Shown in pieces: positions 13,846 through 53,684 of a stretch of DNA of 64,000 nucleotides. Source of the DNA: Planctomycetota bacterium (GTDB lineage: Bacteria; Planctomycetota; UBA8108; UBA1146); assembly GCA_012960845.1 (NCBI GenBank), contig DUAN01000189.1:2942-66941 (forward strand), given 5' to 3'. The position numbers and the translations under genes were made by a program. The notes beneath the pieces are model-generated. The model did not search any database, had not been told where the DNA came from, and saw only the letters and a program-made list of their open reading frames with translations. Numbering within the stretch: position 1 is the first letter of the stretch; each line of letters begins with the position of its first letter.

Positions 13846-14364
13846 TCAGGGGGACTCCAGTCGAATACTTCGCATCCTGGGAACAATCTGGCGAAAGACT
13901 TCCTCGCTCCCCTGACCCCTGGATATCCACATCACATGGATCTCGACCAGCAACTCATCGATGTAATCATCGCTCGGAATGGTGCGATAATTGACATCTC
14001 TTTCGCCATCGCGATCTTGCCTGACGCTCACGATCAACTTGTCTCGCCCCTGTTGCTTGGAAATGGTGCCGTATCGCACTTCGACAGAAATCCCCGGCCA
14101 GTGAGCGAGCAGCGGGTCCCACGGAGGATTATTGATCAAATCAGTGACCGTTCCGCCGTCGCGGATCGTCCCCTCAAGGGCGGACAGAACCACCTCCGAG
14201 ACCTCGATGGCGCGGATTCGATCGACCGCACGTCGATGAGATGCCGTACCTGCGGCAAACAGAGCGATCGCGGCGCTGATCCCCACCGTGAGGATTCCCA
14301 GAGCCACCACGACCTCGAGCAGGGTGAACCCGGTTTCCTTGCTCTCCATCTTCATCGTTGCCAC
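13846..14364 (-). CDS. GspI-like minor pseudopilin (prepilin-type N-terminal cleavage/methylation domain)
   Basis: Class III signal: KETG|FTLLEVVVALGIL with Glu+5; small 150-170 aa protein; last gene of pseudopilin operon. Confidence 0.7.
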   Translation of the reverse strand: MATMKMESKETGFTLLEVVVALGILTVGISAAIALFAAGTASHRRAVDRIRAIEVSEVVLSALEGTIRDGGTVTDLINNPPWDPLLAHWPGISVEVRYGTISKQQGRDKLIVSVRQDRDGERDVNYRTIPSDDYIDELLVEIHVMWISRGQGSEEVFRQIVPRMRSIRLESP

Positions 14365-15434
14365 CCCGGATCCCTGGCCCCTGGGATCCTCACCGTCTTA
14401 CGGAATTCGGAACCGTGGACGACAAACCGAAGACGGGAGTGCTCCACCGCAGTGGTGCCTCGCATCCCTCTATCACAGTCGAGAAAAGCACCACTGGTGA
14501 GCCGCCCCACTCGAATCCATTCAGAGTCGATACGGATGTAATTGTCGGGACCGATCGGATACTGAGCGGTCGAATCGACGAGGATGTCTCCGCTACTCCC
14601 GTCGATATCCTCACTCAGTCGGGCAAGTGCAGCGGAACGGGCCGGTTTCAGCACCAGCAACACCTCGACAGTATCGGGAAAGACATCATCGAAGGGATCA
14701 TCTCGGCTTGCTGAATCCCAGTAGATTCCCGACTGGCGGTCCATCGGCAAGATGCCCCGCGTCGAATCCCAGAAGGAAAGCGGTGGTTGCACCTTGCCAG
14801 CGACAAAGCGACGACGATCTCCACCCCAGAACGACCATTCGATGTGGAGTACTCCATCTGCGATGGGACGGCTGCGCCGCGGCGTCCCGTCGACATCCGG
14901 CGCCAGGTTGACATCATTGAACAGGGTACCTTCGCCCCCGATAGGACTCTTGAAGCCTCTCCACAACACCTCGGACCCCTCCTCGGGTCCCATCGAGTAA
15001 CTGACCTCGCACAGGCCACCCGGGGCGCGCAGAATTCCCAATCGAGCTTCCATCGAGTCATTATTGTAATCGATATCGGCGAGACCACCGGTGAGAGATC
15101 CAGCAATCCGGGTTATCGGGTTCCTGACCTCCTCGTCGAGCACGCTGACCATCCTCAAACGGGATCGCCCCCGGCCATCTCGGTCACAGAGCAGCAAGAC
15201 TTCGACCAGACCACCACCGGGTCCCGGATCTGGTTGTGAGAAGAGTGATCGCAGGTCGGCGCAGAGAGGCTCGAGGATCGCTTCTGCTCGCTCGATCGAT
15301 TCGCGTCTCGATTCGCCGACTTGCCAGGTGGAGATGCCATCTCTCAGGAACACGACAAGACCGCTACCGAGCATCACGAAGATACCCAGTGCCACCAGAA
15401 TCTCGATGAGGGTCAGTCCCTGTTCTTTGTTCAT
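14352..15434 (-). CDS. GspJ-like minor pseudopilin; start at MNKEQG|LTLIEIL (TGATG overlap with upstream stop)
   Basis: Prepilin-type N-terminus with Glu+5, GspJ-like helix following; stop/start overlap with giant upstream gene. Confidence 0.65.
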   Translation of the reverse strand: MNKEQGLTLIEILVALGIFVMLGSGLVVFLRDGISTWQVGESRRESIERAEAILEPLCADLRSLFSQPDPGPGGGLVEVLLLCDRDGRGRSRLRMVSVLDEEVRNPITRIAGSLTGGLADIDYNNDSMEARLGILRAPGGLCEVSYSMGPEEGSEVLWRGFKSPIGGEGTLFNDVNLAPDVDGTPRRSRPIADGVLHIEWSFWGGDRRRFVAGKVQPPLSFWDSTRGILPMDRQSGIYWDSASRDDPFDDVFPDTVEVLLVLKPARSAALARLSEDIDGSSGDILVDSTAQYPIGPDNYIRIDSEWIRVGRLTSGAFLDCDRGMRGTTAVEHSRLRFVVHGSEFRKTVRIPGARDPGWQR

Positions 15435-18400
15435 CAGTACGGATATTCCTCGTGATGAAGGATTCGCCACTCCTTACGGTGTTCGATTCCAAGGGTCTTC
15501 AAGACGGGAAGATGTTTCCATTCATCATTCCACACCCCCGACTGTCGAGTTTGGCCATGGGCTCCTTTTCGGTGACGGTAGTGGATTCGAATTTCCAAGG
15601 CATCGCCAAACTGTCCCAGACGATTGACATCGGCCGGATCGTCAAACAAATAGAGGCCACCAGGCTGATTGGTCGGAATCGAGTCCCACCCGGGAACGCC
15701 ATCGAATCGAGCGAGAACCCTGACCGATCCTGCGGTGGCTCGATTGCGAGACTGTTCCACTTCCCAGCGGATTCGATCCCACATGGTTCCGGGCATCGTC
15801 CAGGCTCGCTCGAGGTACTGCAGATCCTTCGATTCCACCAGTGGTTGATATCGATCGTGATGTCGAGCGAGCAGTTCGATGACTGGAGTACCGGCGGGTT
15901 GGACCTTGAAATCGGTACCGAAGCGACCACGGAAAATTCCTTTTCCAGTACGATCATCGCGAAACAGCCCGAAGCTGCTGCCCTGCGCACCGGTATGAGC
16001 GATGATCTCGTCTGGAGTCGTAATGATGCCGTCATCCACCAGCAGGTAACCCTCGCCGGAGGGGAAGCCGGCCAACTGACGATTCCCACCTTCGTTTCCG
16101 GGAGGCCCCATCACCTCCAGAGTCAATCCTGATTCTGCGACCTGCCCGGCGAGCCGAGCCACCGGAATACTGGGGAGGGGAACCAGAGGTTCTCGTCCCA
16201 GTTCATTGCTGGTACGTTCGGTGGCGAGCATTCCTCGGGTCATCACATCGATGATGCGGGAGGGAATCAACCGCAACCGATGGGTGTTGGTCACTACCTG
16301 AACAGCGCCTGCAGCATCGGTATATGACCACTGATAAACATAGCCACCCACCGAAGATCCCAACTGACCACGCAACACATTGCGCAGTACACCGTTCGAT
16401 GCTTGTTCGTAGTACAGCACTTCGTTGGTCGGACCACTGATCATTTCGAGGAACCCACCATTGGGTGGAAGGTTGGCCGTGTTATCGACCTGGATCGAGT
16501 TGACCACTTCTACTCTCAGATCACGATTGGGGTCATAGGGAACCACCTCCCCTTCACCCAGGGCGTTCTCGTCAAGGTAGGGATCGCGGGGCAGATCCTG
16601 CTCCAGTTGGATCACCACATCGGGCTCGACCTGGCCGGGATCAAAGGTGTAGTGCATCACCTCATCATCGACCTGGAATAATCCTTCTCGCTTGCCCAGT
16701 CCAAATCCTCGAGGATCACCTTTGGAAAATGTTCGAACACCTCCCGTGGGCAAACTGGCGCCACTTTCCGGACCCTGCGGTTGCGGAGCAGAAGCGGTGA
16801 GTTTCGATCGAGCCAGCAAGTGGATCCTGTCGAGGACACCACCCGGTTGTTCGGAATCCTGTTTCGAATAGCCGCTTTGAATCACCTCGGTACGCACCCC
16901 CGACGGTAAGCCAGGCGACGCCTGGATCGCCATCGTGCGGAATCCACCATTGGAAGCCGCAGGAAATGCATAGGTTTCAACATCACTCGAGTCAAGGCGG
17001 CTGAAACGCACTTCGTCGAGGGTCCCCGGAGCATCGATTCCATCGCCACTGATCATCGATGACCCGAAACGAATCTCCCCGTTGGTCGAGGACGGCAACC
17101 CACCGCTGGGGAATCGACGGATCCGTGGATCCTGTCCCGGACGATAGATCCCTTCCGGAGGCCAGTAGAAACTGACATAGGTTCCACTATCGGTTTCTCT
17201 CACCTTGCGAACTCTCAGCGGCGTATCTTCCCGAAGTCTGTTGGTCGGATCGCCATAGCCATCTCCGAGGATCACCTCGTCGGCAAATCCAGCGGATGCC
17301 CCGACTGCGCGGACCACCTGGGTGATCTCCTGCCCCGCGGCATGACGGACGATGCCATTCATATCCCACAACGGGCGATTTCGACGGAATGGATCACCGG
17401 TGTTGATGTACTTGTCTCCGGTGAAGCCGCGAAATGCATCGACCTGATCGGGATCACAGATGAAGAACTTCCCCTCGGCAATTTGTGTGTATCGAATCCA
17501 CTCTGCATCTTGCAGTAGTCCGATACTCTGGGAACCGGGCATGTAATCGATCTGGATCACGCCGGAAGGCGCGTAGCTTTGATTCAAATCGGTCGCATTC
17601 GATTCAATCGAAACACCCCTGACCTGCAGAGTCGTTGTGGAAGTGGCAGTGATGATCCCGACGGTCGCCGTAGAGTTCAGTAAAGCTCTACCCATGGCGG
17701 TGAATCGATAAAGGCCAGGAACCGGTCCCGGAGTGATGGAGGAATACTTGGCGAATTCAGTTGCGACCAGCCGCCTCGGCTCGGTTCCCTGCTGGGTCCA
17801 TTGTCGAATGTGAAGATATCCCCGAGGTGGGAAACCCAGTTCGAGAGGATGGCTCCCATTGGTCTGCACCAGCAGCGAGAGCGAGTTGGCGGCAAACGGC
17901 TCCAGTTCCAGGGTGCTGGTCACCGGACTGCCGACAGAGAATGGAACCTGTGTCGAGGCTCGGGAAAATGTCGCTGGAGTCAGTTCCACTGCACCGTTAC
18001 TGGTGTTGAAGGCGGAAACTCTCATCGTTGGAGTGACCTCGATCTCCAGCGAAGCTCCCCCCGGACCGATGATGATGTCGTTGGAAGAATCGGTCAGAGC
18101 ACGTCGCGGATCGGAGTTGGCAAGGGGTAAGGAGTAGCCCAGAAGCCTCACGGGAGTACCGGAAGCATGACTCGACCGAACCGTCCCGCGGACACCGCGT
18201 CCGATCGGAGGAGAGCCGTTGGGACCTGGCGGCCGGACGATGAAGGAAGCCCCTTCCCGACCGGAGTAATCGATCGCTTCCGACCCCACCAGCAGAGTCC
18301 CGTTGGGAGGAAATCTTGTGGCCATGTCGCCATCGACGATGGAAACACGGTTACCGGAGAAGGAAAGGGCGCCATTGAGACGAGATAACCAGGACTGACG

Positions 18401-21175
18401 ACCGACCGGACGACGATCGATCAGCAGCACCAGATCTCCCGGCCTGGTCGATCTCCAACCGGCAGAGATGTGGTACCAGGTATCATCGGCGAAGGTGGTA
18501 GTGGTGACCGAGTGTCGCACCTCAGCTGCTGGAAGCACCTTGCTATCCCATGCAACTGCGGAACCGGTCTCATCAAAGACTTGCAGTACCAACTCCTGTG
18601 TATCCCCGGAGAAGAACAATCTCACACGATCGCGATAGCGATCCAGAGTCGGGCCTACCGAGTCAAAAATGATGCGATTGCCACTGCGCGATCCCCAGCG
18701 CGGGCGATACCAGAAATCGACCATTGCAGGAACTGTCGAAAGAGCGTCGTTGTTGGCACCCTGATCCGGCGTCAATTCGATTTGCGGCTCTCGCAATCCC
18801 CGCCCCCTGCGACCACCGCCTTGAGTCGGGTCAGCTTCTTGCTGTAGAAGAATTGAGCGCTTCCACGAACCATCTTCCAGTTCGTATCCTTCGATGGTCT
18901 CGTTGAAATGCTCGACCTCGAGCAAGCCCACCGCTCCGAATCCGTAGTTTCCAGAATCTCGATCGTAGGCGATGGTCTCCCCACGAAGAGTTCCCTCATC
19001 GAGAGAGGGACCGGTGAACTTTCGACGGTTGAGGGGGATCGGCCCACTGACCACAAGGTTCGACGCCCTACCGGGAACGAAAGTCGTATTGAAACGAGAA
19101 AAGCGCCCCCCTCCCGGATCCCGTGTGGCATAGATGGAAGCCCAATCCTGCTGAGTTTCTAGCCTCAATGAGAGCGGATCGGGAGGTGCGACCTCGATCA
19201 CTTCACGATACCGGACTGTCGCTTGCGGAGTACCCACAGGACTCCTGGCAACACCGGTAGACTCCACCGTGTAGATCTCCGATGTCGCATAGCAAAATCC
19301 AGTGGTAGAGATGGAGAGTCGTGGCTGATTTGGATTCAAGGCGTTGATGAGAATCGATTCTGAATCACCCCCATCGAGGACACCACTCAACTGAGCAGCT
19401 TCCACCACCTCACGAAAAGCAGCAAAACCAGAGATCGGCATCGCCTCCAGCAAGAGATCGGTCAACCCGCGAGCCTCTTTGACGGTCACTCCATTGAAGT
19501 TCTGCTCGAATCGATCGGTAGAGAGACCGGTCAATACCGCCTCGATGACTCTACGAGGGGCGGTGTTGATGTTGATGGGGTGCCTCAGTGCGGCACTGAC
19601 CATCGCCTCACGCTCAGCCCACTCGAATTTCAACGGCTCCTTGAGTATCACCCCGCCCTGGAAGATGGCTCCAGTTCCCATACCTCTGAATCCGCCCCGA
19701 GGAGTCGGGAACGCCCCGGCAGCAAGGCCGTACTCCACCTTGGAAGGATCATTGATACTACGAATCCGAACGACCGTCCCCGGATTGAAGAAGTCATATC
19801 GTGGAAGTCGCATCTGTGGCACTCCCAGCAGCGCACTATTGGTGATCTCGCCCTCGACCATCTGTTCCTGCGACCAAGCTCTTGGCTGAGTTGAGCTGGT
19901 AGTGATCAGGTCGCGGATCTGTTCAAACTCGAATGCCGAAAATGTTTCCATACCTGGGATATCGAATATTTCCTGGTAAGCGAGGATGGCACTGGGGAAG
20001 TAGGACTTGCCGCGTTTCTTGATCTTCTTCAGCTCTGGCGCGATGAAAGTCAAATACACACCTTTGAATGCATTCCCCCTGGCCTTGGTCAGACCAAACC
20101 CTTCGACCACCTCGGCCGCTTCGATCACTGCGGCTTTACCGCGAATCGACTCGAGCAGATCGACCACTTCCTTCGGGATATTATTATCGAGGAACAACTT
20201 TCGTGCCTTGCGATACTCTGCCTCGTCTACCTCCTCAGGCTCTTTCTGGAGCAAGGAAGGATCGATTCCAGCGCGCACCAGCATCTCGGTGGTCAGTCCC
20301 CAGTCCGCCATATTTTCAAAACTCAGGCCGACCACAGCAAGGGTCTGGAGGAAGTAAGGCACCACTGACCAATCGGCAATCTGGCGGATTCCAATCGGAG
20401 TACGAAAAGTGGCGATGTCTCCGTCCGAAAGGTTGGCGAGTCGGTGCAAGAATACCTTCAAGCCGCGCAGATCGAAGACCGGCCACCCTTTCTGGTGCTC
20501 CCATGTCCCCGACAAGTACTGCCCCCGGAAGATTCCGGTCAATGCCTTTTCGGTCTTGCCTGTGTAGGAGATCGCCTCGACAGTGAAGAAGAGCGGATTG
20601 AGGATCACGACCACACCATCCACCGTCTCCGGATCATCATCCGCAGGAAAGGACGAGGTGTCGTCGAGTGGCAATTCACCAATATCCGTTTCATAACTGA
20701 TCGCTTCTGAAAGGTGACTCCCGGCCAGCATGTTGCCGATGAGATTGGGCATCGCAGAGTTGATGTTGATCTTACCCTGCTCATCGGTCACCCGAGCATC
20801 GAGGATCACAGCAGAATCACCGCGCATCTGGAAGACCTCCGGCGCTGTGCCGACCACCGGCACGGAGGTGATCGTTGCGGGAAAATCGACCTTCAGTTCG
20901 TCGAGGCCGTCGATCAGATCTGGTGCCTCTGTACCGGGTCTCCACCGGTCTCGTTCACGACTGTGGTGGGTATCAAATAGTTTACTCAGAGCATGGCTCC
21001 TGGCACTTTGCGCTGCGAGACTCGCTCTTTGTTGCGCCAGTGATCGAGCGGCGCCTTTTTCCTGAAGTTTCATCGAGATCACGAATGGAGTGCCGATCGC
21101 GGCCAGGGCGGAAAGCACCAGGATCACCATCAACAGGGCCATTCCCCGCTCACGATACCGTATTAAATTATCCAC
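15434..21175 (-). CDS. giant (1913 aa) GspK-like minor pseudopilin / tip-like protein with large extracellular insertions
   Basis: N-terminus RERG|MALLMVILVLSALAAIG, prepilin-like but lacking Glu+5 as in GspK; two GspK-type helix-hairpin-helix motifs (KININSAMPNLIGNML and HPININTAPRRVIEAVLTGLS); single uninterrupted 5.7-kb ORF. Confidence 0.75.
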   Translation of the reverse strand: MDNLIRYRERGMALLMVILVLSALAAIGTPFVISMKLQEKGAARSLAQQRASLAAQSARSHALSKLFDTHHSRERDRWRPGTEAPDLIDGLDELKVDFPATITSVPVVGTAPEVFQMRGDSAVILDARVTDEQGKININSAMPNLIGNMLAGSHLSEAISYETDIGELPLDDTSSFPADDDPETVDGVVVILNPLFFTVEAISYTGKTEKALTGIFRGQYLSGTWEHQKGWPVFDLRGLKVFLHRLANLSDGDIATFRTPIGIRQIADWSVVPYFLQTLAVVGLSFENMADWGLTTEMLVRAGIDPSLLQKEPEEVDEAEYRKARKLFLDNNIPKEVVDLLESIRGKAAVIEAAEVVEGFGLTKARGNAFKGVYLTFIAPELKKIKKRGKSYFPSAILAYQEIFDIPGMETFSAFEFEQIRDLITTSSTQPRAWSQEQMVEGEITNSALLGVPQMRLPRYDFFNPGTVVRIRSINDPSKVEYGLAAGAFPTPRGGFRGMGTGAIFQGGVILKEPLKFEWAEREAMVSAALRHPININTAPRRVIEAVLTGLSTDRFEQNFNGVTVKEARGLTDLLLEAMPISGFAAFREVVEAAQLSGVLDGGDSESILINALNPNQPRLSISTTGFCYATSEIYTVESTGVARSPVGTPQATVRYREVIEVAPPDPLSLRLETQQDWASIYATRDPGGGRFSRFNTTFVPGRASNLVVSGPIPLNRRKFTGPSLDEGTLRGETIAYDRDSGNYGFGAVGLLEVEHFNETIEGYELEDGSWKRSILLQQEADPTQGGGRRGRGLREPQIELTPDQGANNDALSTVPAMVDFWYRPRWGSRSGNRIIFDSVGPTLDRYRDRVRLFFSGDTQELVLQVFDETGSAVAWDSKVLPAAEVRHSVTTTTFADDTWYHISAGWRSTRPGDLVLLIDRRPVGRQSWLSRLNGALSFSGNRVSIVDGDMATRFPPNGTLLVGSEAIDYSGREGASFIVRPPGPNGSPPIGRGVRGTVRSSHASGTPVRLLGYSLPLANSDPRRALTDSSNDIIIGPGGASLEIEVTPTMRVSAFNTSNGAVELTPATFSRASTQVPFSVGSPVTSTLELEPFAANSLSLLVQTNGSHPLELGFPPRGYLHIRQWTQQGTEPRRLVATEFAKYSSITPGPVPGLYRFTAMGRALLNSTATVGIITATSTTTLQVRGVSIESNATDLNQSYAPSGVIQIDYMPGSQSIGLLQDAEWIRYTQIAEGKFFICDPDQVDAFRGFTGDKYINTGDPFRRNRPLWDMNGIVRHAAGQEITQVVRAVGASAGFADEVILGDGYGDPTNRLREDTPLRVRKVRETDSGTYVSFYWPPEGIYRPGQDPRIRRFPSGGLPSSTNGEIRFGSSMISGDGIDAPGTLDEVRFSRLDSSDVETYAFPAASNGGFRTMAIQASPGLPSGVRTEVIQSGYSKQDSEQPGGVLDRIHLLARSKLTASAPQPQGPESGASLPTGGVRTFSKGDPRGFGLGKREGLFQVDDEVMHYTFDPGQVEPDVVIQLEQDLPRDPYLDENALGEGEVVPYDPNRDLRVEVVNSIQVDNTANLPPNGGFLEMISGPTNEVLYYEQASNGVLRNVLRGQLGSSVGGYVYQWSYTDAAGAVQVVTNTHRLRLIPSRIIDVMTRGMLATERTSNELGREPLVPLPSIPVARLAGQVAESGLTLEVMGPPGNEGGNRQLAGFPSGEGYLLVDDGIITTPDEIIAHTGAQGSSFGLFRDDRTGKGIFRGRFGTDFKVQPAGTPVIELLARHHDRYQPLVESKDLQYLERAWTMPGTMWDRIRWEVEQSRNRATAGSVRVLARFDGVPGWDSIPTNQPGGLYLFDDPADVNRLGQFGDALEIRIHYRHRKGAHGQTRQSGVWNDEWKHLPVLKTLGIEHRKEWRILHHEEYPY

Positions 21176-22562
21176 GGATCGCCCCCGTCATATCGATCAC
21201 GATGTTATGGAGGCGCAGAACCGACGTTCCATCGACATCGCCGATTCCGTAATGCATCCCTGGAGTCGAAGGAACCGGATTCTGCTCCTCTGCTTCCCCT
21301 GTGACAGCTTCAGGATCCACTTCCCAGTCCTCCAGATGTTTCATCAGATCCGAAATTGGATCCCCGAACGCCTGAGCAATCTCTTCATCTCGACTCGTCT
21401 GCTCCTGCCGCTCACGCTCGATACGATCCCTGAACCCTTCGCCGGCGACGGCTGTTCCATCGGCCGCTTCGATTTCGGAGAAATCACCCACTTCCGCCAC
21501 ATGAATCACAACGGGACGATTGTGTTGCAAGGGATCCAGAGCGCCTCGACCATCCAGATGGATCACGGTAGTGGGTCCCAGAATTTCGATGTCGATGGGC
21601 ATCTCCACGACCACCGGAGTGGTCGCCACACGGAGAACCACTTGATCGATGGCTCCCATGAAAAATCGATTGGGATGACTGATCCACAGGTCGGAATCAC
21701 TATGGGGGACAGCAGTGGGCAAAGGAGGCCATTGATCGATCACCACCTTTTCGAATCTCTCGGGCACCCAGGGCTGCTCGACGCCGTCGACTTCGATGAC
21801 CAGTTCAGTTCGGTCGAAGGTCGCTCTCAGGTGAACCCAGCGATCGGGAACCAGCGTAGAACCTTCCGTCTGTGCCCGGATGAACTCCCCTTCGCTGGCC
21901 CTCAGAGGGTCGCCGATCTCCATGTAGACAGCACCGTCCCCGAGGACTCCCATCTCGAAAGAGTTGGGGATTCCCAGAACTGCCATGCGCATTTCTCGTC
22001 GGGGATCGGAGAAGCCACCGTCGGGCTCGATACCAACCTCGGGAAGCCACGGTGGCTGCCAGAAATGAACCCACGCTTCGATGGAGACTCCATCTCGTCC
22101 ATCATAAATGGGAAGCCGCCGAACACGAAATGCAGCCCCATCGTCGAGGAACATCGCCCCTCTTCCGACGGAACCTGCGCAGGCTTCGACCCGTCCCACC
22201 AACTCCGCGGGTTGACGAAATGCCCCCACTGTCTTCGAGCCCGCGGGAAGCGGGATTTTTTCAGGAAGACCGTGAAAATCCTCGAATCCCCATGCTCCTG
22301 CGAGCTGGAATCCAAAGGCGCTCACTTTTCCTCGATCTGGATCGACCAGGATCCGGCTCGGCATCCCGGTAGAAATCGACCAGTTTCGAGCGGCGCGAAC
22401 CGTCGTCGAGATGCTGCTGGATGCGATCTCCAGCGATTGCGCCTCTCCAAATGACTGAAAAACGGAAATCGACAATCCCATCAAAACGGACAGGATCGAA
22501 AGAACCACCAGCAATTCCATCAGGGTCACACCGACCTCAGAATCGACTGCCTTCTTTACCAT
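21168..22562 (-). CDS. GspH-like pseudopilin fused to C-terminal LamG/ConA-like jelly-roll domain
   Basis: SEVG|VTLMELLVVLSILSVLMGLSISVF prepilin N-terminus with Glu+5; C-terminal DGVSIEAWVHF...RWVHLRATFDRTELVIEVDGVE LamG-like signature. Confidence 0.7.
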   Translation of the reverse strand: MVKKAVDSEVGVTLMELLVVLSILSVLMGLSISVFQSFGEAQSLEIASSSISTTVRAARNWSISTGMPSRILVDPDRGKVSAFGFQLAGAWGFEDFHGLPEKIPLPAGSKTVGAFRQPAELVGRVEACAGSVGRGAMFLDDGAAFRVRRLPIYDGRDGVSIEAWVHFWQPPWLPEVGIEPDGGFSDPRREMRMAVLGIPNSFEMGVLGDGAVYMEIGDPLRASEGEFIRAQTEGSTLVPDRWVHLRATFDRTELVIEVDGVEQPWVPERFEKVVIDQWPPLPTAVPHSDSDLWISHPNRFFMGAIDQVVLRVATTPVVVEMPIDIEILGPTTVIHLDGRGALDPLQHNRPVVIHVAEVGDFSEIEAADGTAVAGEGFRDRIERERQEQTSRDEEIAQAFGDPISDLMKHLEDWEVDPEAVTGEAEEQNPVPSTPGMHYGIGDVDGTSVLRLHNIVIDMTGAIRG

Positions 22563-23197
22563 GGCGCCACATCGTCCGAGTCTGCCGCCTCGTCAGAATG
22601 CATCTGGTGAATGCCATCGGGACCTGCAGACCAGATCTGAAATCTTAGCGGTTCGTGAAAGGTCGCAGTCTTCAGAGAAGTCCCCGCCTGGATCTTGACC
22701 GGTCCAGTTTCCTGGGTCACGGAGTATTCGATCCCGTAGTCTCGGTTGTGCATGTAGACGTAGGGAACACCCCAGGGGTCGACATACTCCCGCAACTGAT
22801 CATCTCCGAAGACCCATCGCATCTGCTGATACAGATCCGCGTTTCGCAGATGATCCTGATCGAGGTTTTCGAGAAACTCTTCCTTGAACTCAAAGTAACT
22901 TCGGCCCCTGGATCGACTGGCGAGATGGGCCACCAGACTCTCATTTCCCTCGTCGAGGCCGTTGCCAGAGATCTCGTATTCCTTCTCCATCGAACTGGGA
23001 GGGTAATCTCCAAAATCGAGTTGATAGGTCTCAACGCCCAGCACCAACCTCTGCATCTCCTGCTCGGCCAGTCCGATGGAACTACTCTTGATGGCGAAAC
23101 CGACCATCTTTGAACCGAGTCCAGCCAGAACACCGATGATGGCAATCACCACCAGCAACTCGACCAGGGTGAATCCAGCTCGTGGAGAAGAAGTCAT
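22556..23197 (-). CDS. gspG: GspG-like major pseudopilin (type II secretion / type IV pilin-like)
   Basis: MTSSPRAG|FTLVELLVVIAIIGVLAGLG with Glu+5, followed by GspG-like EQEMQRLVLGVETYQLDFGDYPPS segment. Confidence 0.8.
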   Translation of the reverse strand: MTSSPRAGFTLVELLVVIAIIGVLAGLGSKMVGFAIKSSSIGLAEQEMQRLVLGVETYQLDFGDYPPSSMEKEYEISGNGLDEGNESLVAHLASRSRGRSYFEFKEEFLENLDQDHLRNADLYQQMRWVFGDDQLREYVDPWGVPYVYMHNRDYGIEYSVTQETGPVKIQAGTSLKTATFHEPLRFQIWSAGPDGIHQMHSDEAADSDDVAPW

Positions 23198-25528
23198 CTA
23201 GTACTCCTGTTCCCGAACAGAGACCGCCTTGCGTCGAAAGACCTCGAACTCCTCGACCGCCAGCTTGTATCTCTCACCGAGCGGAGCCTGCCCTGAAAAA
23301 CCCGCCGTCAAACCAGACTTCCGGACAGGCCGATAGGAAATTTTTTGCGCCACAAGGATGCCGTCAAACCACAATTCCGCACCCTTCTTGCCGTCCCTGG
23401 TGAAGATGAACTCCAACTGGTGTGCCCGATCATCGAGATCCCAGGAGGTGGCAATTAATCCATAGTCTTCCGCCTGCTCAACATCGTCACTGCGCACCAT
23501 CTCGATCTCTTTGCCACCGAGAAGTGCGAAACCCAGAACGCCATCTGGATCACGGAAGAAGATCAGCCCTCCGCCCGATTGATCTTCGATGCGAAAAGCG
23601 ACCCTTGTGCCAGCCCCTGCGGACAACAACCGCAGTGTCGAACGAATGCCGGTCAAGCGTGGGGTTAGAACTTCTCGTTTCATAGTTGTCAGACGGTCCG
23701 GTTGGTGCTTCTGAACCCCATCCAGCACGGCCATTCCATCCTGGAGTGAAACGGAAACACCGAAGGCTTCCTCTTCTCGCCAGTTATTTTGCAGCGAGGA
23801 GTCCGCCTCCCTCTCGAAGTCATCGAACCAGTACTCTTCGCCAAGGGTTCGGTTAATTCTACGGAATGCCCGCAACGCCCAGCGCAAGGGAGCCGGAGAG
23901 TCCGGTGTCCAGGATTCGCGCAACTTTTCCGGGAACAGTTCGAGAGATTTCCCCAGAGCACGTCGAGCCCCCTGAAGATCTCCACTGGTGTGCAGAAATT
24001 CAGCGAGAGCATTCCAGCCATCGGGATTCTTTGGCTGTTCGATGGTCACGAGGGTGAGAGATTCTCGGGCCCGCTCGGGATCACCACCGGGCCCCCGTTG
24101 CGCCAGCCCAAGGCGAAGCATCACATCGGAGCCATCGAGCCCACTGGCGATGGCATACTCCAACCACCTTCTTGCTTCAGCCAGTTCCCCCAGGGAGAGT
24201 GCGTGATCCCCCAGTACCAGGGCACATTCAGCGAATGCTGCGGAGGACAATACGTCATGCCGCATCACCTTTTCGATCTCCGGGGTCGGATCCCAACCTG
24301 GCTCCAGTCGCATCCTCGCCTCGATGCTCAGTAACCGTGATTGCCAGGTGGCATCGGCCTGCAGCGCCGCTTCGAGATACAAGTCCACAGCGGCGCGCGA
24401 TTCCCCCCTCGACTCCAGCACATAGGCTTCCACCAGTCGCCAGTCCACCTCGACCTTGCTTCCCGAGGAAGCGGAAGACAGTAGGTCGAGAGCTTTTTCG
24501 AAATAACCCATCCGGGCAAAGGAGAGCGCAAAGGTAGTGGCAGCAATCGCATCGACACTACCTGCCCTGAAAGCCTTCTTGAAGTCGCTTTGCGCCAGGC
24601 TCAACTCATCATCGAGCAATCGTGCAGAACCTCGATAGAGATAACTTTGACCATCGTCACCACCAGCAACGATCAGGTCTTCAAACATCTGCTCGATCGA
24701 TTCCCGCGATTCCAACGACCCTGCGGCATAGTCGAGGACTGCCCAACGGATTTCTCGTTGCAAGACCTCGACGTCACTTCCACCACCGCCTTCACGCAGA
24801 CGGTTTGCTGCCTCTCTCGACTCAGCCGTTCGACCCAGAGAATCGAGAAGGACGACTAGTTTTTTCAGAGCGGCAGCGACGCGCGGGTCTGCCATTTCTC
24901 CTTCGCTGATCTGGGTGAGTAGAATGACTGCCGCTTCATGTTCGCCGATCTGGATCAACTGAGTCACCGCCAGTTCGACCAGACCATCCTGTTCGATCCC
25001 GGCCTGCACCCCACGAAGGAGAGTCTCGACCATCATCACAGCAGCCGCCATTTCCTGATCCCTGGTCTTGAACTGGCGAAGTTGAGTCTGTTGGTAGATC
25101 GGCATCAGCAGTAGATAAGGAGCGGGAGCTGCGGGATCCAGTCGTACCGATTCCTCCAGGTGGCTGACCCCTTGCTCCAATAGCCCCACACCGGGATCAA
25201 GGCACCACTGACCGATTTCAAACTGGGACTCAGAAGATGCAACATCGAAATCCCCCATCCGTCGCGCTTGATAGACCTTTTCCGGAGGATTCCGATACCT
25301 GATACTTTTGACTTCTGACATTTTGAAGGAGACCTTGCCCGCTGAAGTTTCAAACTGAATCAGTTCAGTCAACTCTGCGAGAATCGTGCCTTCGAACTGG
25401 TTGCCGTTGGTCAATTCGATCAGATCGAAAGCACGGATCTCCAGGTCGATGGCACTTTGGGCCTCGACCACGGACCAGGAAAAGAGCAGGAGGCTCAGCA
25501 GGACGATGCGGTTGTACTTGTTCATCAC
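23198..25528 (-). CDS. secreted TPR-repeat protein with C-terminal LamG-like/jelly-roll domain
   Basis: Signal peptide MMNKYNRIVLLSLLLFSWSVVEA; many TPR-like helical repeats; C-terminal HQLEFIFTRDGKKGAELWFDGILV jelly-roll signature. Confidence 0.65.
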   Translation of the reverse strand: MMNKYNRIVLLSLLLFSWSVVEAQSAIDLEIRAFDLIELTNGNQFEGTILAELTELIQFETSAGKVSFKMSEVKSIRYRNPPEKVYQARRMGDFDVASSESQFEIGQWCLDPGVGLLEQGVSHLEESVRLDPAAPAPYLLLMPIYQQTQLRQFKTRDQEMAAAVMMVETLLRGVQAGIEQDGLVELAVTQLIQIGEHEAAVILLTQISEGEMADPRVAAALKKLVVLLDSLGRTAESREAANRLREGGGGSDVEVLQREIRWAVLDYAAGSLESRESIEQMFEDLIVAGGDDGQSYLYRGSARLLDDELSLAQSDFKKAFRAGSVDAIAATTFALSFARMGYFEKALDLLSSASSGSKVEVDWRLVEAYVLESRGESRAAVDLYLEAALQADATWQSRLLSIEARMRLEPGWDPTPEIEKVMRHDVLSSAAFAECALVLGDHALSLGELAEARRWLEYAIASGLDGSDVMLRLGLAQRGPGGDPERARESLTLVTIEQPKNPDGWNALAEFLHTSGDLQGARRALGKSLELFPEKLRESWTPDSPAPLRWALRAFRRINRTLGEEYWFDDFEREADSSLQNNWREEEAFGVSVSLQDGMAVLDGVQKHQPDRLTTMKREVLTPRLTGIRSTLRLLSAGAGTRVAFRIEDQSGGGLIFFRDPDGVLGFALLGGKEIEMVRSDDVEQAEDYGLIATSWDLDDRAHQLEFIFTRDGKKGAELWFDGILVAQKISYRPVRKSGLTAGFSGQAPLGERYKLAVEEFEVFRRKAVSVREQEY

Positions 25529-25911
25529 TGCGACTCCTCATCTTCATCGACTGCCACGGGTATCTTCAGTTCAGCTCGCAAGCGGGTTCTGGGGTCCCCG
25601 GAGACCAGTGCTGGCAGTGGGATTCTGCGCGGCACGGAGCTCACTGGAGGTTCCCCGAGTAAATCCGCCGGAGCAGGTTTCCAATCGCTGACACTGGCGA
25701 ATGGATTTCTGGCCGCCTCGATGGGAGCCGGCTCATACCACTCCAGCCTCACCAGCCCTCCGACAGTTCCTCCATCGCTCGATTCCGGTGTCCGCAGATC
25801 GACAGCCGCAAGTGGATCTTCCAGGATGTAAGTCTTTGCCAGTCCCAGAAGATTCAGCAGCAAAAATCCAAGACAGAGGACGCAGAATCCTTTTTCGATA
25901 TTCCAGCGCAT
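25525..25911 (-). CDS. small membrane-anchored hypothetical protein (PilP-like position)
   Basis: N-terminal hydrophobic helix FCVLCLGFLLLNLLGLA; translationally coupled within operon; no domain recognised. Confidence 0.4.
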   Translation of the reverse strand: MRWNIEKGFCVLCLGFLLLNLLGLAKTYILEDPLAAVDLRTPESSDGGTVGGLVRLEWYEPAPIEAARNPFASVSDWKPAPADLLGEPPVSSVPRRIPLPALVSGDPRTRLRAELKIPVAVDEDEESQ

Positions 25912-26717
25912 CAGAACCCCCTCCTCGAACGGTCAGAACCCCTTCGAGTAGAACTCGACTCCACTCGGGGGTCTTCCATGTCGATCCCGACTACCGTCAA
26001 TTCCACTTCGATCTTGTCTCCACCAGATTTCTCAGGGATCACCCGGATCGGCTCCAGTGACAGGAATCCGCCATTTCTCTGGAAACGAAGCAGCATTTCT
26101 GCCAACTGTTCCGGCAAGCAGAGCATCTTGACCTGGAGGGGATAACGCGCGAGTACCTTGTCTGGATCTTGTAGCGCTTCCTGAATCCTCTTCGCCGGGT
26201 TCACGTCATCGAGACGCGCCACCCCGGTCTGAAGACAAACCCTGGTAAATCGATCGAGCACCTCCAGCAAGCGATATCGATCGGACCACTCCAGTAGAGA
26301 CAGGTCCGATCGCTCATCGAAATTCGGTATCTCAGCCGGCGTCACCATGCCAGCGCGATTGGCTTGGTTTCTGAAGTTGTTCCAGACCAGATCCTTGGCG
26401 CGCTTGAAGTCGGTACTGACAGATGCTTCATCGACCGATGGCTGGTGTACCGCAGAATAGGCAATGCCTAGTTTCTTGAGGAGATCCCGATTGCGCTCCT
26501 CGAGAGCGGTCCGGGATTTCCTCTCCACATCGACCACTCCTTCGAGCCCCTCGAGATCCTGAGCGACCAGTTGAGCATCCTCTTCATGACGAGCCAGGCT
26601 GATCTCATGCTCAGAGCGATAACCCCGGGTCACATTGGATATCACGAGAAAGATCGCCAGTGCGGAGAGAGCCTGGATCAAGACCTTACGATTTTTTTGC
26701 CAGATTTCCTGCATCAT
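25911..26717 (-). CDS. GspM/PilO-like bitopic inner-membrane assembly protein
   Basis: Single N-terminal TM (VLIQALSALAIFLVISNV), coiled-coil, C-terminal ferredoxin-like region; position after GspL-like gene. Confidence 0.5.
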   Translation of the reverse strand: MMQEIWQKNRKVLIQALSALAIFLVISNVTRGYRSEHEISLARHEEDAQLVAQDLEGLEGVVDVERKSRTALEERNRDLLKKLGIAYSAVHQPSVDEASVSTDFKRAKDLVWNNFRNQANRAGMVTPAEIPNFDERSDLSLLEWSDRYRLLEVLDRFTRVCLQTGVARLDDVNPAKRIQEALQDPDKVLARYPLQVKMLCLPEQLAEMLLRFQRNGGFLSLEPIRVIPEKSGGDKIEVELTVVGIDMEDPRVESSSTRRGSDRSRRGF

Positions 26718-28333
26718 CCTCTCCCCCCGAATGGTGACTTGGTTCGTCGCCTGCCTGGTCCACGGCTACTCTTCTCAGGTAATTTCTCATCCGGAGATAC
26801 CAGGATGCTGAAGGGATAGGCTCCTGACTTCTGATCGTCCGGTGTCGAGCGAACCCTCTCAACACCAGATATCCCCTCGAGGTTTCTCTGCAAGGTCTCG
26901 ATCGCTTCGAGCCCATTGCGACGAGAGTTATCGGACTGGCCGATCAACTCGATCTCGATTCCTATTTTCGCATCACCTACCACCCGGCGAAGGCTGATCT
27001 GCTCCAGTGAAATTTCCGAAGGGAGATCCTGGCGAAGACCATCGAGGATTTTCGCATAAAACTTCCCCGTCTCGATCTCCTGGACGATCCTGGTCTCTCT
27101 CTTGCGAAACACGTCGTTTTTGGTTCGAGCGTCTTCCTCGGCATTACGCCAACTGGTGATATTTCCGCGCCATTTGCGAATCGTTTCCGAGGCACCCGAG
27201 GAACGTCCGGCAGATACCGACACGTCCATCACCTGCAATCCGACGGCAAGAATCAGCGCTGCTACACCTACCCATAGAAATCGTGTGTGATCGCGGAACG
27301 TCCTGCGCTCGCATTCGGCGCTGGGTAACAGATCGACGATCTGCTCCTCCGAATCGAGCGCTGCTGCTGCGGTTCCGACTACCAGGGTCCACTGTGGGCC
27401 ATCGGTTCCACTAAAGGAGACTTCCTCGATATCTTTACCGAGCAGATCTCGTAATTCAGCACCGCGACACACCAGTGCCGCTCCGATGCCCGATACCAGA
27501 ATTCGATCTGCCACGACATCGTCAATTTTCAACTGTGCCTGGCAGAAGGTGAGGGAAGAAGTGAGCATCTGTCCCAGTTGGCTGGTCCACCCTCGGTGGC
27601 AGCCAATCATCGCCTCTTCTCCGTCGAGCAGGTCACCCGACGAGAAGGCTTCGACCATCTTGCGCGCTTTCGACTCCGAGACCGAGAGGCGTTCAGAGAC
27701 CAGATCCACCATCCCATTCAGGCCAAATCCAACGGTGCGAGCAAACAACAACCGATTCTCGCGGACCACCAGTACCTGCGTTTCTGCCTCCTGAACGTCG
27801 CACACCAGTACCGTCTGATCGCCACTGTCAGGACCATGGCTGGCGAGGTGCCCATGATAGGCCCCGATTGCAGAAGGCAATGCCAGCTGCACCTGCCCCT
27901 TACTCTCGCGAATCTGATCGATGATGGGCTGGATCACTGCGTCTTTCCCGACCCCTAGCAACAACAATGTGTCCTCGGAAAGGCTTTCAGGGACCAGCAG
28001 TTCGATGTGCCCACCGGAGAGTGCGTCTCCAGTCTTTTCGGCGATCTCCTCGATCTCGTAATGAAGGATCAAATCGAGTCTCCAGGAGGGCACCGGAGGC
28101 ACACTGTGGTAACGCAGAGAAGAACTCTCGCCATCGAGAACCAGCGCGATGTTACCGGTTGGGAATCCCAACTTCGACAGTTCAGCGATCCATGCACCGA
28201 TACTCGACTCATCATCGGGTTTCAACTCGTGGACAGAAGCCACTTCAACGGTGTGACCGACCCCACGTACATGGGCCGCACGCCAGCGATTTTCCTTCAC
28301 CTCGAGTACGGCTACCTGCCCCTTGTAGGACAT
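26714..28333 (-). CDS. GspL-like protein: cytoplasmic actin-like (PilM-type) domain, one TM, periplasmic PilN-like domain
   Basis: N-terminal PilM/GspL-cyto-like region, TM helix FLWVGVAALILAVGLQVMDV, ~150-aa periplasmic tail. Confidence 0.6.
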   Translation of the reverse strand: MSYKGQVAVLEVKENRWRAAHVRGVGHTVEVASVHELKPDDESSIGAWIAELSKLGFPTGNIALVLDGESSSLRYHSVPPVPSWRLDLILHYEIEEIAEKTGDALSGGHIELLVPESLSEDTLLLLGVGKDAVIQPIIDQIRESKGQVQLALPSAIGAYHGHLASHGPDSGDQTVLVCDVQEAETQVLVVRENRLLFARTVGFGLNGMVDLVSERLSVSESKARKMVEAFSSGDLLDGEEAMIGCHRGWTSQLGQMLTSSLTFCQAQLKIDDVVADRILVSGIGAALVCRGAELRDLLGKDIEEVSFSGTDGPQWTLVVGTAAAALDSEEQIVDLLPSAECERRTFRDHTRFLWVGVAALILAVGLQVMDVSVSAGRSSGASETIRKWRGNITSWRNAEEDARTKNDVFRKRETRIVQEIETGKFYAKILDGLRQDLPSEISLEQISLRRVVGDAKIGIEIELIGQSDNSRRNGLEAIETLQRNLEGISGVERVRSTPDDQKSGAYPFSILVSPDEKLPEKSSRGPGRRRTKSPFGGRG

Positions 28334-30894
28334 CAGTTCCCCCTCGCATGGATGAGTTTCAATTCCTGAATCGCAACGGCCGCTCCCGGTGAGCCCGGAT
28401 ACTGATTCAGCAACGATTGAAAGTAGAATCGTGCGATCTCGAATCTGTTTTTACCGAGCGCCTCGTGAGCACGAGCCAGCAACAGTTCCACCTTACCGAC
28501 GGTCAAGAGTTGCTCTGCATTTGTGTTTTCACTCTTGCGCTGATCGATGATTTCCTGCGCCCTCGTGGCCGGATCCAGTCCCCCGAATCTAGCCATCGAT
28601 TCGCGGCAGATCCTTTCGAGATAGGTACCGGTAGGTGACCCTGGAAACTTCGATGAATCCTCAAGGACGGCTGCGATCTGCCCGAGCGCAGCACTGACCT
28701 CGACATCGATGTGGTGCTCGAACTGATCCAGTTTTCGGGCCACGTCGGCTCGCCAGGGGAAATCTGCTCGAGCCTTCTGGATCAATCGAGCCGCATCCCC
28801 CTCGGCCCTGGCATCGATGGCGCGTTCCACCTCGGCGAGAGCCTCCAGCACTCGGGATTGCTCGCGCTCACTACTGGCGGTGAATGAAACATCGAGCGCG
28901 CCTCCGGCGATGATAATTCCTGCGTCCGCCATCCACAGCGTGCCTCGCCCGTCATGGTCAGGGAATACCGAAAACGTCATCGGCTGTTGAAATGTCGCCA
29001 CCATCTGGTCCTTGCCGATTCCGATCGAGATCTCGGTGCCGGAACAGGGCTGCAGATCGGTCCAGCGATCCGCCGAGATGACCAGTTTATTGCCGACAAA
29101 GACCTGCACAGGAGAAGAACCCCTTCGGCGAGGAATCCTCCCGACCAGGATCAATGGAGTGGGGCGTTGCGGAGTCCAACTGGCTGCAATCTTCCAGCCG
29201 ATGGAGCGAGCGAACTGCTGAATCGCCACCTTTCCTTGCCCTAGTTCATCCAGTTCGAAACCGAGTCGAACCGATCCGTCATCCCCGGTGACCACTTGCT
29301 CTCGCCGAACCGGCAGTAACTGCCCCCATGGCATCGCTCTGGGAGGTCCGACCGCCACTCGAAGGTCCGAGATCAATTCCTGCCGTCCCCGCATCAACTT
29401 GCCAACGCCGTAGGCATCGATGGCCAGATCCATCTTCTGTTCATCATCACCTGCGGAAATGACGACCGCTGGATCTCTCCCAGTCTCGACCGCTCTGACC
29501 ACCAACTGGTCGAGCAATAGTTGACCGCTTCCTTGCCCCAGTGCCACCAGCGAGACTCTTGCAGACCCTCCATTTCCCTTCACCGGAGGTGCAAACTCTG
29601 CAGCATGCCCACTCCAGTTCGAGGACGACTTCAAGGAAGAAAACTGTTCGTCAATTATTCGGTCACCTTGATCGCTCGACTCGATCCAACGAACGCAGAA
29701 TCCGATCCGATCGAAACCGACCTTTTGAAGACGAGCACTGAGCCGTAAACCATGACCCTGATCGACCTCGAAGATGGTGTCATACTCGAGGCGGAAAATC
29801 CCCAGTGCATCGGCTTCTCCGCTGCACAAGAGCCACTGCTTCCCCTGTGGAGCCTGGTCGCCTCGTTGAACATCGAGGGTTCCCTCGCCGCTGGCGAGTC
29901 GCCATGGTCCATCGAGTATCGGGCCGATGGGCACCTGTTCGAAATGTCCAGCTCCGGAAAGCCGATCACCCCGGGGGACCACCAGGTCAGGATTACTTGC
30001 GAGATCCTCAATCCACCCGTAGCCAGAGTAGAGCACCACACCCAGTACCAGGATGAAGGAGATGGTGAAGAGCCCCTGAGATCCCTGTGAACCAACATCG
30101 ACCCGGGTACTACGCCCCACTGTCATCTCGGCGGTAGGATTGGCCGCCGACCGGGTCGTCATACGAATGGCTGCTCGCCCATCTCCAGCTGATTTCGACC
30201 GACCGGGAAATCCCATCGCGGTGAACTTCGTCATGCCGATGCGGAATTGAACCCCATCTCTCAGTTCCAGTTTCTTGACCTTCTGTTGCCCCACCACGAT
30301 TCCATTTCCGGAGCCGAGGTCGGACATGTACCACTCACCATCTTGCTCGAGCAGGACGGCGTGCTTGGAAGATATTCTATTGTCCTCGATGGTCACGTCG
30401 GCCTCTTCGGCGCGCCCGATAACCACTCGCCCAACCGCTGGGATCCAGTGATCGATACCGCCATGCTGATAGGCCAGGCAAGGACCGGTGGGTGCAGTTG
30501 TGACAGAAGTTGCTGTGGAAGATGTGGCCGGTGCAGAAGCAGGTGCTGCGATCGGCGTTCGATCGGTATCATCCTCGAGTAGAGCCCCGTCTGTCAATTC
30601 TAGCAGCAACTCCGCATCCCCGATGCAGATGCAATCGCCATGAGAGAGGGTCACCTGGTCGACCTTTTGCCCGTGCAGGAGACTTCCATTGGAGGAAGAG
30701 AGATCCTGATAGATGAAAGCATCCCCCTCCCAGCGAAAAACTCCATGCTTTCTAGAAGCGGCTCGATCCTCGATCACGATGCGAGACCCGGGGTCCCTGC
30801 CGATTGTGATCGGTTCCTGAGAGATGTTGACGATGGTCTTGCGACCGATGTCCTTCACGCGAATCCTGCCACTCATGCTAGTGCTCCCCATCAT
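28333..30894 (-). CDS. membrane protein with two N-terminal cytoplasmic FHA domains, one TM helix, large periplasmic domain and C-terminal TPR-like helical region
   Basis: FHA1 ITIGRDPGSRIVIEDRAASRKHGVF...SSNGSLLHGQKV, FHA2 VVIGRAEEADVTIEDNRISSKHAVL...GSGNGIVVGQQKV, TM LFTISFILVLGVVLYSGYGWI; no P-loop. Confidence 0.75.
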   Translation of the reverse strand: MMGSTSMSGRIRVKDIGRKTIVNISQEPITIGRDPGSRIVIEDRAASRKHGVFRWEGDAFIYQDLSSSNGSLLHGQKVDQVTLSHGDCICIGDAELLLELTDGALLEDDTDRTPIAAPASAPATSSTATSVTTAPTGPCLAYQHGGIDHWIPAVGRVVIGRAEEADVTIEDNRISSKHAVLLEQDGEWYMSDLGSGNGIVVGQQKVKKLELRDGVQFRIGMTKFTAMGFPGRSKSAGDGRAAIRMTTRSAANPTAEMTVGRSTRVDVGSQGSQGLFTISFILVLGVVLYSGYGWIEDLASNPDLVVPRGDRLSGAGHFEQVPIGPILDGPWRLASGEGTLDVQRGDQAPQGKQWLLCSGEADALGIFRLEYDTIFEVDQGHGLRLSARLQKVGFDRIGFCVRWIESSDQGDRIIDEQFSSLKSSSNWSGHAAEFAPPVKGNGGSARVSLVALGQGSGQLLLDQLVVRAVETGRDPAVVISAGDDEQKMDLAIDAYGVGKLMRGRQELISDLRVAVGPPRAMPWGQLLPVRREQVVTGDDGSVRLGFELDELGQGKVAIQQFARSIGWKIAASWTPQRPTPLILVGRIPRRRGSSPVQVFVGNKLVISADRWTDLQPCSGTEISIGIGKDQMVATFQQPMTFSVFPDHDGRGTLWMADAGIIIAGGALDVSFTASSEREQSRVLEALAEVERAIDARAEGDAARLIQKARADFPWRADVARKLDQFEHHIDVEVSAALGQIAAVLEDSSKFPGSPTGTYLERICRESMARFGGLDPATRAQEIIDQRKSENTNAEQLLTVGKVELLLARAHEALGKNRFEIARFYFQSLLNQYPGSPGAAVAIQELKLIHARGN

Positions 30895-53456: not shown

Positions 53457-53684
53457 GATTCCTCCATCGGCACCCTTGGCGGGGTGCTCTCTTGACGAAT
53501 GAGACTCGCGATCGGGACTGGATCGGAGTACGGGCCCAGGAAGCCACCTTCCGGGCACTCTCAAGGTATCATGCCTCCTTCTTCAGTTCCATCGTCTAGG
53601 ATCTGGAGGAATATGGGCTTATGGGTGACGAATTGGCTCGATTTGCTTATCTTGGACCAACACCAACATGCCCTGGAGGAACAG

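Follow-up and report, generated by a model that had tools for sequence, protein, structure and literature searches.

How a minor pilin can be extended to 1,913 amino acids, and what such a protein would do for its cell, is the question raised by an open reading frame in a 64,000-nucleotide stretch of planctomycetal DNA (hereafter, the window). Tip complexes determine the binding targets of a type IV filament and whether it can be assembled at all. The GspK–GspI–GspJ and PilX–PilW–PilV complexes form the filament tip and prime polymerization. Two solutions are known. In one, a small GspK completes its sheet unaided; in the other, a small PilK receives a strand from a giant adhesin, PilY1 or MshQ, which is a separate protein. 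Work published in 2026 found that a terminal strand closes the PilK-type sheet, and strand addition in tip complexes may occur in cis or in trans (PMC13533445). We find that the giant is very probably a GspK-fold minor pilin. On balance, we favour placing it, as a modular minor pilin, in the GspK/PilX (PilK) class, with the role of capping a type IV filament by means of a binding head; both the tip location and the ligand are inferred. If so, the family would represent a third solution, in which a single chain of 1,300–2,300 amino acids unites the priming pilin and the head, and it would offer a natural test case for the cis/trans strand-addition model.

The gene, which we denote K, occupies positions 15434–21175 of the window on the minus strand, as do all the features described below. 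The initial annotation had claimed a single uninterrupted ORF of 1,913 amino acids here without naming the strand, and our reading agrees, giving 1,913 codons from a GTG. This GTG and the stop codon of the upstream gene, H, overlap (GTGGATAA), and the stop codon of K overlaps the ATG of the downstream J gene (TGATG); because start and stop codons overlap at both junctions, H, K and J look translationally coupled. A public annotation (GCA_029935935.1, contig JAPOGP010000649.1) starts the protein at the ATG of codon 12, which yields 1,902 amino acids. The GTG appears better supported as the start, because the leader and its Gly(−1) persist in relatives in which position +1 is Ile, Val or Ala.

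The N terminus carries a class III (prepilin) signal, with a short basic leader, Gly at −1 and a hydrophobic α1N segment. The leader (residues 1–11; 21143–21175), recognized by its motif and by conservation in the family, ends in Gly(−1), and the sequence RERG/MALLMVILVLSALAAIG is found at residues 8–28. The hydrophobic α1 helix of the pilin fold (residues 12–68; 20972–21142) has Met rather than Glu at +5. Among 148 family members sharing less than 80% identity, position −1 is Gly in 126 and Ala in 6 more, and position +5 is Met, Leu, Ile, Ala or Val and never Glu, in line with the lack of Glu+5 pointed out in the initial annotation. The conservation of Gly(−1) implies processing.

Residues 1–665 show a GspK-like fold whose α-domain is split by a 375-residue insertion. 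In the AlphaFold2 model of residues 1–700 (pLDDT 81, pTM 0.79), which, like our other structures, rests on prediction from a 32-sequence alignment, the α1 helix spans residues 8–68 and is followed by the first pilin β strands and the first helix-hairpin-helix (HhH) motif, DEQGKININSA (residues 95–155; 20711–20893). The insertion (residues 156–530; 19586–20710) comprises small barrel A (residues 156–240), a helical bundle (residues 241–430) and barrel B (residues 431–530). The second HhH motif (HPININTAPRRV...) and the remainder of the α-domain follow (residues 531–625; 19301–19585), and two long β strands (residues 626–665; 19181–19300) complete the module. Strands 634–661 rejoin the sheet in the model, and the pilin sheet thus appears to be closed in cis, as in GspK. 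Both GspK-type HhH motifs named in the initial annotation are present, as KININSAMPNLIGNML at residues 135–150 and HPININTAPRRVIEAVLTGLS at residues 532–552, and their consensus forms, DEQGK[IV]N[LIV]N[ST]A and HP[VI]N[IVL]NTA, hardly vary in the 148 members (N535 in 144, N537 in 145). Mean-field DCA (mfDCA; 148 sequences, 492 columns) places residue 637 with 660, 124 with 644, 59 with 639, and 138, 142 and 145 with 625–629; these are the contacts expected for a GspK-like fold, and they bear on the first HhH region (124–644) and on the closing strands (637–660 and 59–639).

Profile searches agree on the kinship and limit its rank. The NCBIfam model T2SS_GspK (NF037980) matches residues 9–141 with an E-value of 3.9e-9 and 36.5 bits, over profile positions 1–106 only and against a curated cut-off of 130 bits; distant relatives of the giant score up to 57.6 bits. 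Pfam T2SSK (PF03934; GA 24.2) matches residues 534–556, within the second HhH region, at 24.5 bits, only when residues 501–670 are scanned alone. The full-length protein has no Pfam match, and because of this signature-based surveys miss such proteins; a search against PHROGs likewise returned nothing. Run against PDB sequences, a whole-family profile and one of the N-terminal module returned nothing or the pilin helix alone; the N-terminal helix is missing from the GspK structures that have been solved. As its scores lie far below the curated GspK cut-offs, we rank the giant, as far as sequence can tell, as a relative with the GspK fold rather than an equivalog. The structural resemblance of the N-terminal module to GspK, which the initial annotation had singled out for checking, is nevertheless borne out by the model. 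The estimate in that annotation of about 1,600 residues in excess of a 350-residue GspK was right about the extra sequence and wrong about the layout: the module itself spans about 665 residues, and the excess is divided between about 375 residues separating the HhH motifs and about 1,250 residues after the module, rather than forming one appended block.

The AlphaFold2 model of residues 714–1913, also built from a 32-sequence alignment, has a pLDDT of 83.7 and a pTM of 0.82, and this pTM indicates that the C-terminal body of about 1,250 residues is predicted to be one compact all-β unit and not a string of independent repeats. A LamG/ConA-like β sandwich (residues 811–1020; 18116–18745) bears the second copy of a small barrel (about residues 940–1012). 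The all-β middle (residues 1021–1640; 16256–18115), delimited by models and alignments, contains small barrels at about residues 1195–1290 and 1565–1612 and is variable, being shortened or missing in relatives of 1,270–1,560 amino acids. A C-terminal domain found in every family member (residues 1641–1913; 15437–16255) holds another small barrel at about residues 1690–1768. Shorter relatives retain a core made up of the GspK-like module, the LamG region and roughly 270 residues at the C-terminal end. Profile–profile self-comparison finds the small barrel about five times, the first copy at about residues 150–240 and the others as just listed, with the motif E-x-I-x-Y ... R-G-x-x-G-T ... H-x-x-G-x-x-V. 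This barrel resembles a phage tail-fibre domain, and it recurs at the C terminus of J (hhalign probability 96–97.5%, E-values 6.5e-9 to 6.7e-12).

Domain parsing of the remaining sequence, as proposed in the initial annotation, adds up in part, in that a LamG/ConA-like domain and small barrels were found there; PF13385 (LamG/ConA-like) is detected on homologues of the giant. The extracellular placement and the adhesin or substrate-capturing tip suggested in the initial annotation may hold, and the LamG-like domain is consistent with them. Foldseek comparison of the C-terminal model with the PDB gave no architecture-level match (TM normalized to the query at most 0.09), and a homologue search with the C-terminal 274 residues returned two fragments only. 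We considered a PilY1-like propeller and rejected it, as structure comparisons revealed no PilY1-type β-propeller (IPR008707). The lectin-like head would bind a ligand, most plausibly a glycan; a LamG fold alone is no proof of glycan binding.

The extreme C terminus, WRILHHEEYPY, is conserved: the tail is kept in about 190 family members, with W1886, K1887, Y1899, V/I1905 and E1909 as conserved positions, and it is of low confidence in the C-terminal-only model, from which the N-terminal module is absent. By MI-APC, tail windows (the last 10–14 residues, 1899–1912) rank 1–2 of 672 for covariation with strands 626–665, in a scan with overlapping windows and shared phylogeny, which also shows a second hotspot at residues 1728–1748; such covariation would suit a head packed against the pilin sheet. 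The mfDCA of 148 sequences and 492 columns returned no individually significant tail contact, and tail pairs scored near noise. A fold-back of the extreme C terminus onto this sheet, of the kind described for CpaL, is suggestive only.

Similar giants are widespread in Planctomycetota. Among 5.8 billion proteins searched, 35 were relatives, and all the named sources were uncultured Planctomycetota; close orthologues measure 1,790–2,050 amino acids. A scan of one genome per species gave 75 loci, nearly all from Planctomycetota or from metagenome-assembled genomes labelled 'uncultured bacterium'. The labels include UBA1146, TMED53, Brocadiia and Phycisphaeraceae, and one locus is on a Ca. Uabimicrobium chromosome. 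Two loci are labelled Bacillota and Proteobacteria, and we suspect that these are mis-binned. The 75 loci contain 56 complete copies of 1,271–2,268 amino acids, and size is to this extent conserved among orthologues. Matches extending over 8 kb at three loci (L059, L061 and L065) were considered as split genes and rejected, each proving to be two tandem full-length paralogues.

A profile of the N-terminal 700 residues, searched against 1.84 billion representatives at 50% identity, retrieved 2,021 proteins at E ≤ 1e-3, of which 342 reached E ≤ 1e-30. The family, conserved together with its partners across a whole phylum, thus amounts to at least 342 clusters at 50% identity. The best 150 matches are mostly 1,300–2,190 amino acids long, and ten cluster representatives that we looked up are all named only 'hypothetical protein'. 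Searching the literature on planctomycete pseudopilins and giant GspK proteins, we found no description of this giant family.

The giant lies within a co-oriented series of genes. Followed along the minus strand towards lower coordinates, the series comprises, in order, an FHA–GAF–σ54 activator, a two-FHA protein, a PilM-like protein, genes of 268 and 128 amino acids, a TPR protein, G, H, the giant, J and I. The activator and the 853-amino-acid protein with two FHA domains lie upstream (28333–32971), and the FHA proteins are syntenic in closer relatives. The PilM-like protein of 539 amino acids, itself a weak match, and the 268- and 128-amino-acid genes (25525–28333) are candidate assembly-platform genes. 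The TPR protein (776 amino acids; 23198–25528) has an N-terminal hydrophobic segment, possibly a signal peptide, and in the distant loci examined a TPR protein likewise directly precedes G. G (213 amino acids; 22556–23197) encodes a GspG-like putative major (pseudo)pilin (TIGR01710, E-value 6.6e-11), and H (464 amino acids; 21168–22562) a GspH-like prepilin-type protein with a LamG-like domain. Downstream of the giant, J (360 amino acids; 14352–15434) has the leader MNKEQG/LTLIE with Glu+5, and I (about 169–172 amino acids; 13846–14364) has G/FTLLEV, also with Glu+5. Both Gly(−1) and Glu+5 are present in G, H, J and I, which leaves the giant as the only one of five prepilin-type genes without Glu+5, the pattern of the five type II secretion system (T2SS) pseudopilins.

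This arrangement is retained over long distances. Some 60 loci share the order PilM-like..TPR–G–H–K–J–I, at identities as low as about 24%, and J and I are syntenic downstream of K in about 45. In three distant loci annotated with Pfam (L049, L056 and L062), the flanks hold unrelated housekeeping genes and the PilM-like..TPR–G–H–K–J–I core is kept. By sequence, J and I are at most putative counterparts of GspJ and GspI, as their profiles match solved pilins in the PDB only at the N-terminal helix, and the scores of G, H and K are all below the curated T2SS cut-offs.

The giant shares its fold and signal with GspK/XcpX (PDB 3CI0 chain K and 5VTM chain X; NF037980; PF03934) and yet differs from them in several respects. 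In contrast to these proteins of about 300–330 amino acids (a GspK typically measures about 300–350 and has a contiguous α-domain), its α-domain is split by 375 residues and followed by the 1,250-residue tail body. The operon reads G–H–K–J–I instead of G–H–I–J–K, and no T2SS core gene (GspC, D, E, F, L, M or O) is near it. It is not GspK proper, since it falls short of the curated thresholds and departs from GspK in size and in gene set.

Type IV pili offer functional parallels. In PilX/PilK with PilY1/PilC and in MshP with MshQ (PMC13533445), a minor pilin is paired with a tip-located binding protein of about 1,000–1,500 amino acids, to which the proposed head role and the conserved C terminus of the giant are parallel; the giant, however, has both parts in one polypeptide and no PilY1-type propeller, and covariation does no more than suggest strand addition. 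The large pilin-like tip protein CpaL/TadG of Tad pili (PMC13533445) likewise has a middle functional module between an N-terminal pilin-like domain and an essential C terminus, although CpaL is about 600 amino acids long and belongs to another filament class, whereas the giant, three times larger, clearly has the fold of GspK. Modular pilins such as PilB (vWA) and PilC (ConA-like lectin) of Streptococcus sanguinis, ComZ and CofB are, like the giant, pilins with grafted ligand-binding modules, among the commonest of which is the LamG/ConA-like module (PF13385), and the largest multi-domain example named in the survey has 860 residues (PMC8179133). The giant combines a pilin module with a LamG/ConA-like domain and phage tail-fibre-like barrels, as expected of a modular pilin. 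With 1,913 residues, at least seven added domains and no detected InterPro-type signature, it widens the size range of this class more than two-fold, and the criterion of that survey would not have brought it to light. A further PVC giant encoded in a prepilin-type cassette, the Verru_Chthon cassette protein A of Verrucomicrobia and Chthoniobacter (TIGR02600, an NCBIfam model of 1,296 positions), was considered and rejected: the giant gives no match, and distant relatives score 14–19 bits against a cut-off of 332 bits, matching only positions 1–58, 1–61 or 1–73, that is, the N-terminal helix.

From these comparisons we propose the following mechanism. A prepilin peptidase encoded elsewhere would cleave K after Gly11, and the α1 helix would keep the giant in the inner membrane. 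There, K would join the products of J and I, and perhaps that of H, in a tip or initiation complex resembling GspK–GspI–GspJ, which would prime polymerization of the 213-amino-acid GspG-like subunit beneath it. The giant would end as the filament cap, presenting its rigid, β-rich, lectin-like head, so that one chain would combine the roles of PilX/PilK and PilY1 in type IVa pili, or of MshP and MshQ in MSHA pili. On exposed pili, LamG modules carried by pilins are linked to ligand binding (PMC8179133). The filament machine is assumed rather than seen, because the 64-kb window and the surroundings of the operon in the other loci examined contain no gene for a secretin, ATPase, platform protein or prepilin peptidase. 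A head of about 140 kDa on a module of about 70 kDa is also large for secretin passage; to our knowledge, proteins of the PilY1 class are the only precedent for so large a head passing through a secretin.

The same observations can be read in other ways. The giant might be the tip of a true T2SS pseudopilus operating in the large planctomycetal periplasm, with the head as a cargo-recognition or piston surface that selects secreted proteins or pushes them out, rather than a surface adhesin. Its closest relatives in sequence and structure (GspK/XcpX and the GspG-like and GspH-like partners) are indeed T2SS proteins, and the sheet is apparently closed in cis like that of GspK; yet GspD, C, E and F genes are absent from the neighbourhood of the operon in every locus, the scores of G, H and K argue against it, and we know of no secretin whose periplasmic vestibule a 210-kDa tip would fit. 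The tie between LamG modules on pilins and exposed pili (PMC8179133) also runs counter to a periplasmic tip, and we consider this reading unlikely. Less probable still is that the giant belongs to no filament and uses its GspK-like N terminus merely as a membrane anchor and scaffold for a large periplasmic or envelope-spanning protein, perhaps in an envelope structure peculiar to planctomycetes, with its pilin-like neighbours in a static complex instead of a polymer, an idea with which the missing motor and secretin genes, the unusual partners (the large TPR protein and the two-FHA protein) and a C-terminal body that is compact rather than a beads-on-a-string stalk would all be in keeping. What such an anchor would leave unexplained is the joint conservation of five prepilin-type genes, K alone among them lacking Glu+5, with a GspG-like major subunit; this five-gene arrangement is what filament priming requires, and the conserved Gly(−1) speaks for processing.

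The remaining alternatives concern the head and the ORF itself. A tip-delivered enzyme, such as a ConA-like/GH16-type glycoside hydrolase or lyase, in place of a passive lectin is a very doubtful proposition, given that GH16-type matches score below non-catalytic LG and CBM domains. That the giant is an artefact of annotation or assembly (a pseudogene arising by fusion or frameshift, or a chimeric ORF) can practically be dismissed: nothing but the unusual length speaks for it, the same architecture is encoded as a single ORF in all 56 complete copies from independent assemblies, none of the orthologous loci splits the ORF, the sequence is conserved along its whole length and both halves model confidently. 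The initial annotation had likewise argued against a frameshifted pseudogene, and had named a split ORF in orthologous loci as grounds against its reading.

Beyond the preferred reading of the giant as a filament-capping modular minor pilin lies a more speculative extension. Dextran-binding fibres emerge from crateriform structures on planctomycetes (PMC5394234). The giant-capped filament could be specific to Planctomycetota and identical with these polysaccharide-binding fibres, acting as retractable harpoons that catch macromolecules to be taken up into the enlarged periplasm, although we regard this as a long shot. The gene set described here can be tested against both the polysaccharide-binding fibres and the macromolecule uptake of Planctomycetota. 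The occurrence of a relative in Ca. Uabimicrobium, an engulfing bacterium (locus L068), would accord with the capture of prey or particles, as in the harpoon idea.

The giant, a 1,913-residue GspK-class minor pilin, contains a small β-barrel domain in about five copies (residues about 150–240, 940–1012, 1195–1290, 1565–1612 and 1690–1768), and the same domain forms the C-terminus (residues about 282–351) of J, the pilin encoded directly downstream (window 14352–15434, minus strand). The barrel carries the motif E-x-I-x-Y ... RG-x-x-GT ... H-x-x-G-x-x-V and resembles a phage GP4 tail-fibre protein (8jov_1, 116 residues). Contact between the giant and J, the presumed partners at the tip, may be mediated by this domain present in both.

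A second fold may recur within the operon. The GspH-like minor pilin H (464 residues; window 21168–22562, minus strand) is modular, and its residues 199–308 match Pfam LamG-like at an E value of 9.7e-5, below the gathering threshold (GA). Together with the LamG/ConA-like domain of the giant (residues 811–1020), this region would place ConA-like sandwiches on both H and the giant. The GspG-like gene (window 22556–23197, minus strand) encodes 213 residues from an ATG that gives the prepilin signal MTSSPRAG/FTLVELLVV. In the public record of the same genome it is only 144 residues long and loses the pilin helix, probably because the deposited annotation has the wrong start site.

Among relatives of the giant, three planctomycetotal loci (L059, 3928–12069; L061, 10001–18142; L065, 10001–18064) each encode two full-length paralogues in tandem. 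These proteins are about 1,270–1,500 residues apiece, and in each of them the pilin N-terminus, the LamG region and the C-terminal domain are all present, an arrangement that suggests alternative tips for one filament. A further relative of 1,332 residues, also with a LamG match, is encoded on the chromosome of Ca. Uabimicrobium sp. HlEnr_7 (L068, 8230–13987), a bacterium known to engulf prey. Its context is unlike the conserved operon: it is preceded by a TPR and Peptidase_MA protein, lies amid Ser/Thr kinases and has no homologues of G, H, J or I detected by tblastn (E ≤ 1e-5). The family of the giant therefore also occurs outside the conserved operon.

Immediately upstream of the pilin operon, in the same orientation, lie genes for an FHA–GAF–sigma54 enhancer-binding protein and an 853-residue protein with two FHA domains (window 28333–32971, minus strand). 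The activator is syntenic in closer relatives, and the 853-residue protein is found in many distant loci as well. Together these hint that control of the operon is phospho-threonine-dependent and sigma54-driven.

Elsewhere in the window, in a 936-residue open reading frame (55358–58168, minus strand), a 5′-nucleotidase (Metallophos and 5_nucleotid_C) is fused with an entire concentrative nucleoside transporter (Nucleos_tra2_N, Gate and Nucleos_tra2_C); the predicted protein would couple extracellular nucleotide hydrolysis and nucleoside uptake within a single chain. Two paralogues combining HEAT repeats with a von Willebrand A domain (609 and 567 residues; 1250–3079 and 51861–53564, both minus strand) are separated by about 50 kb.
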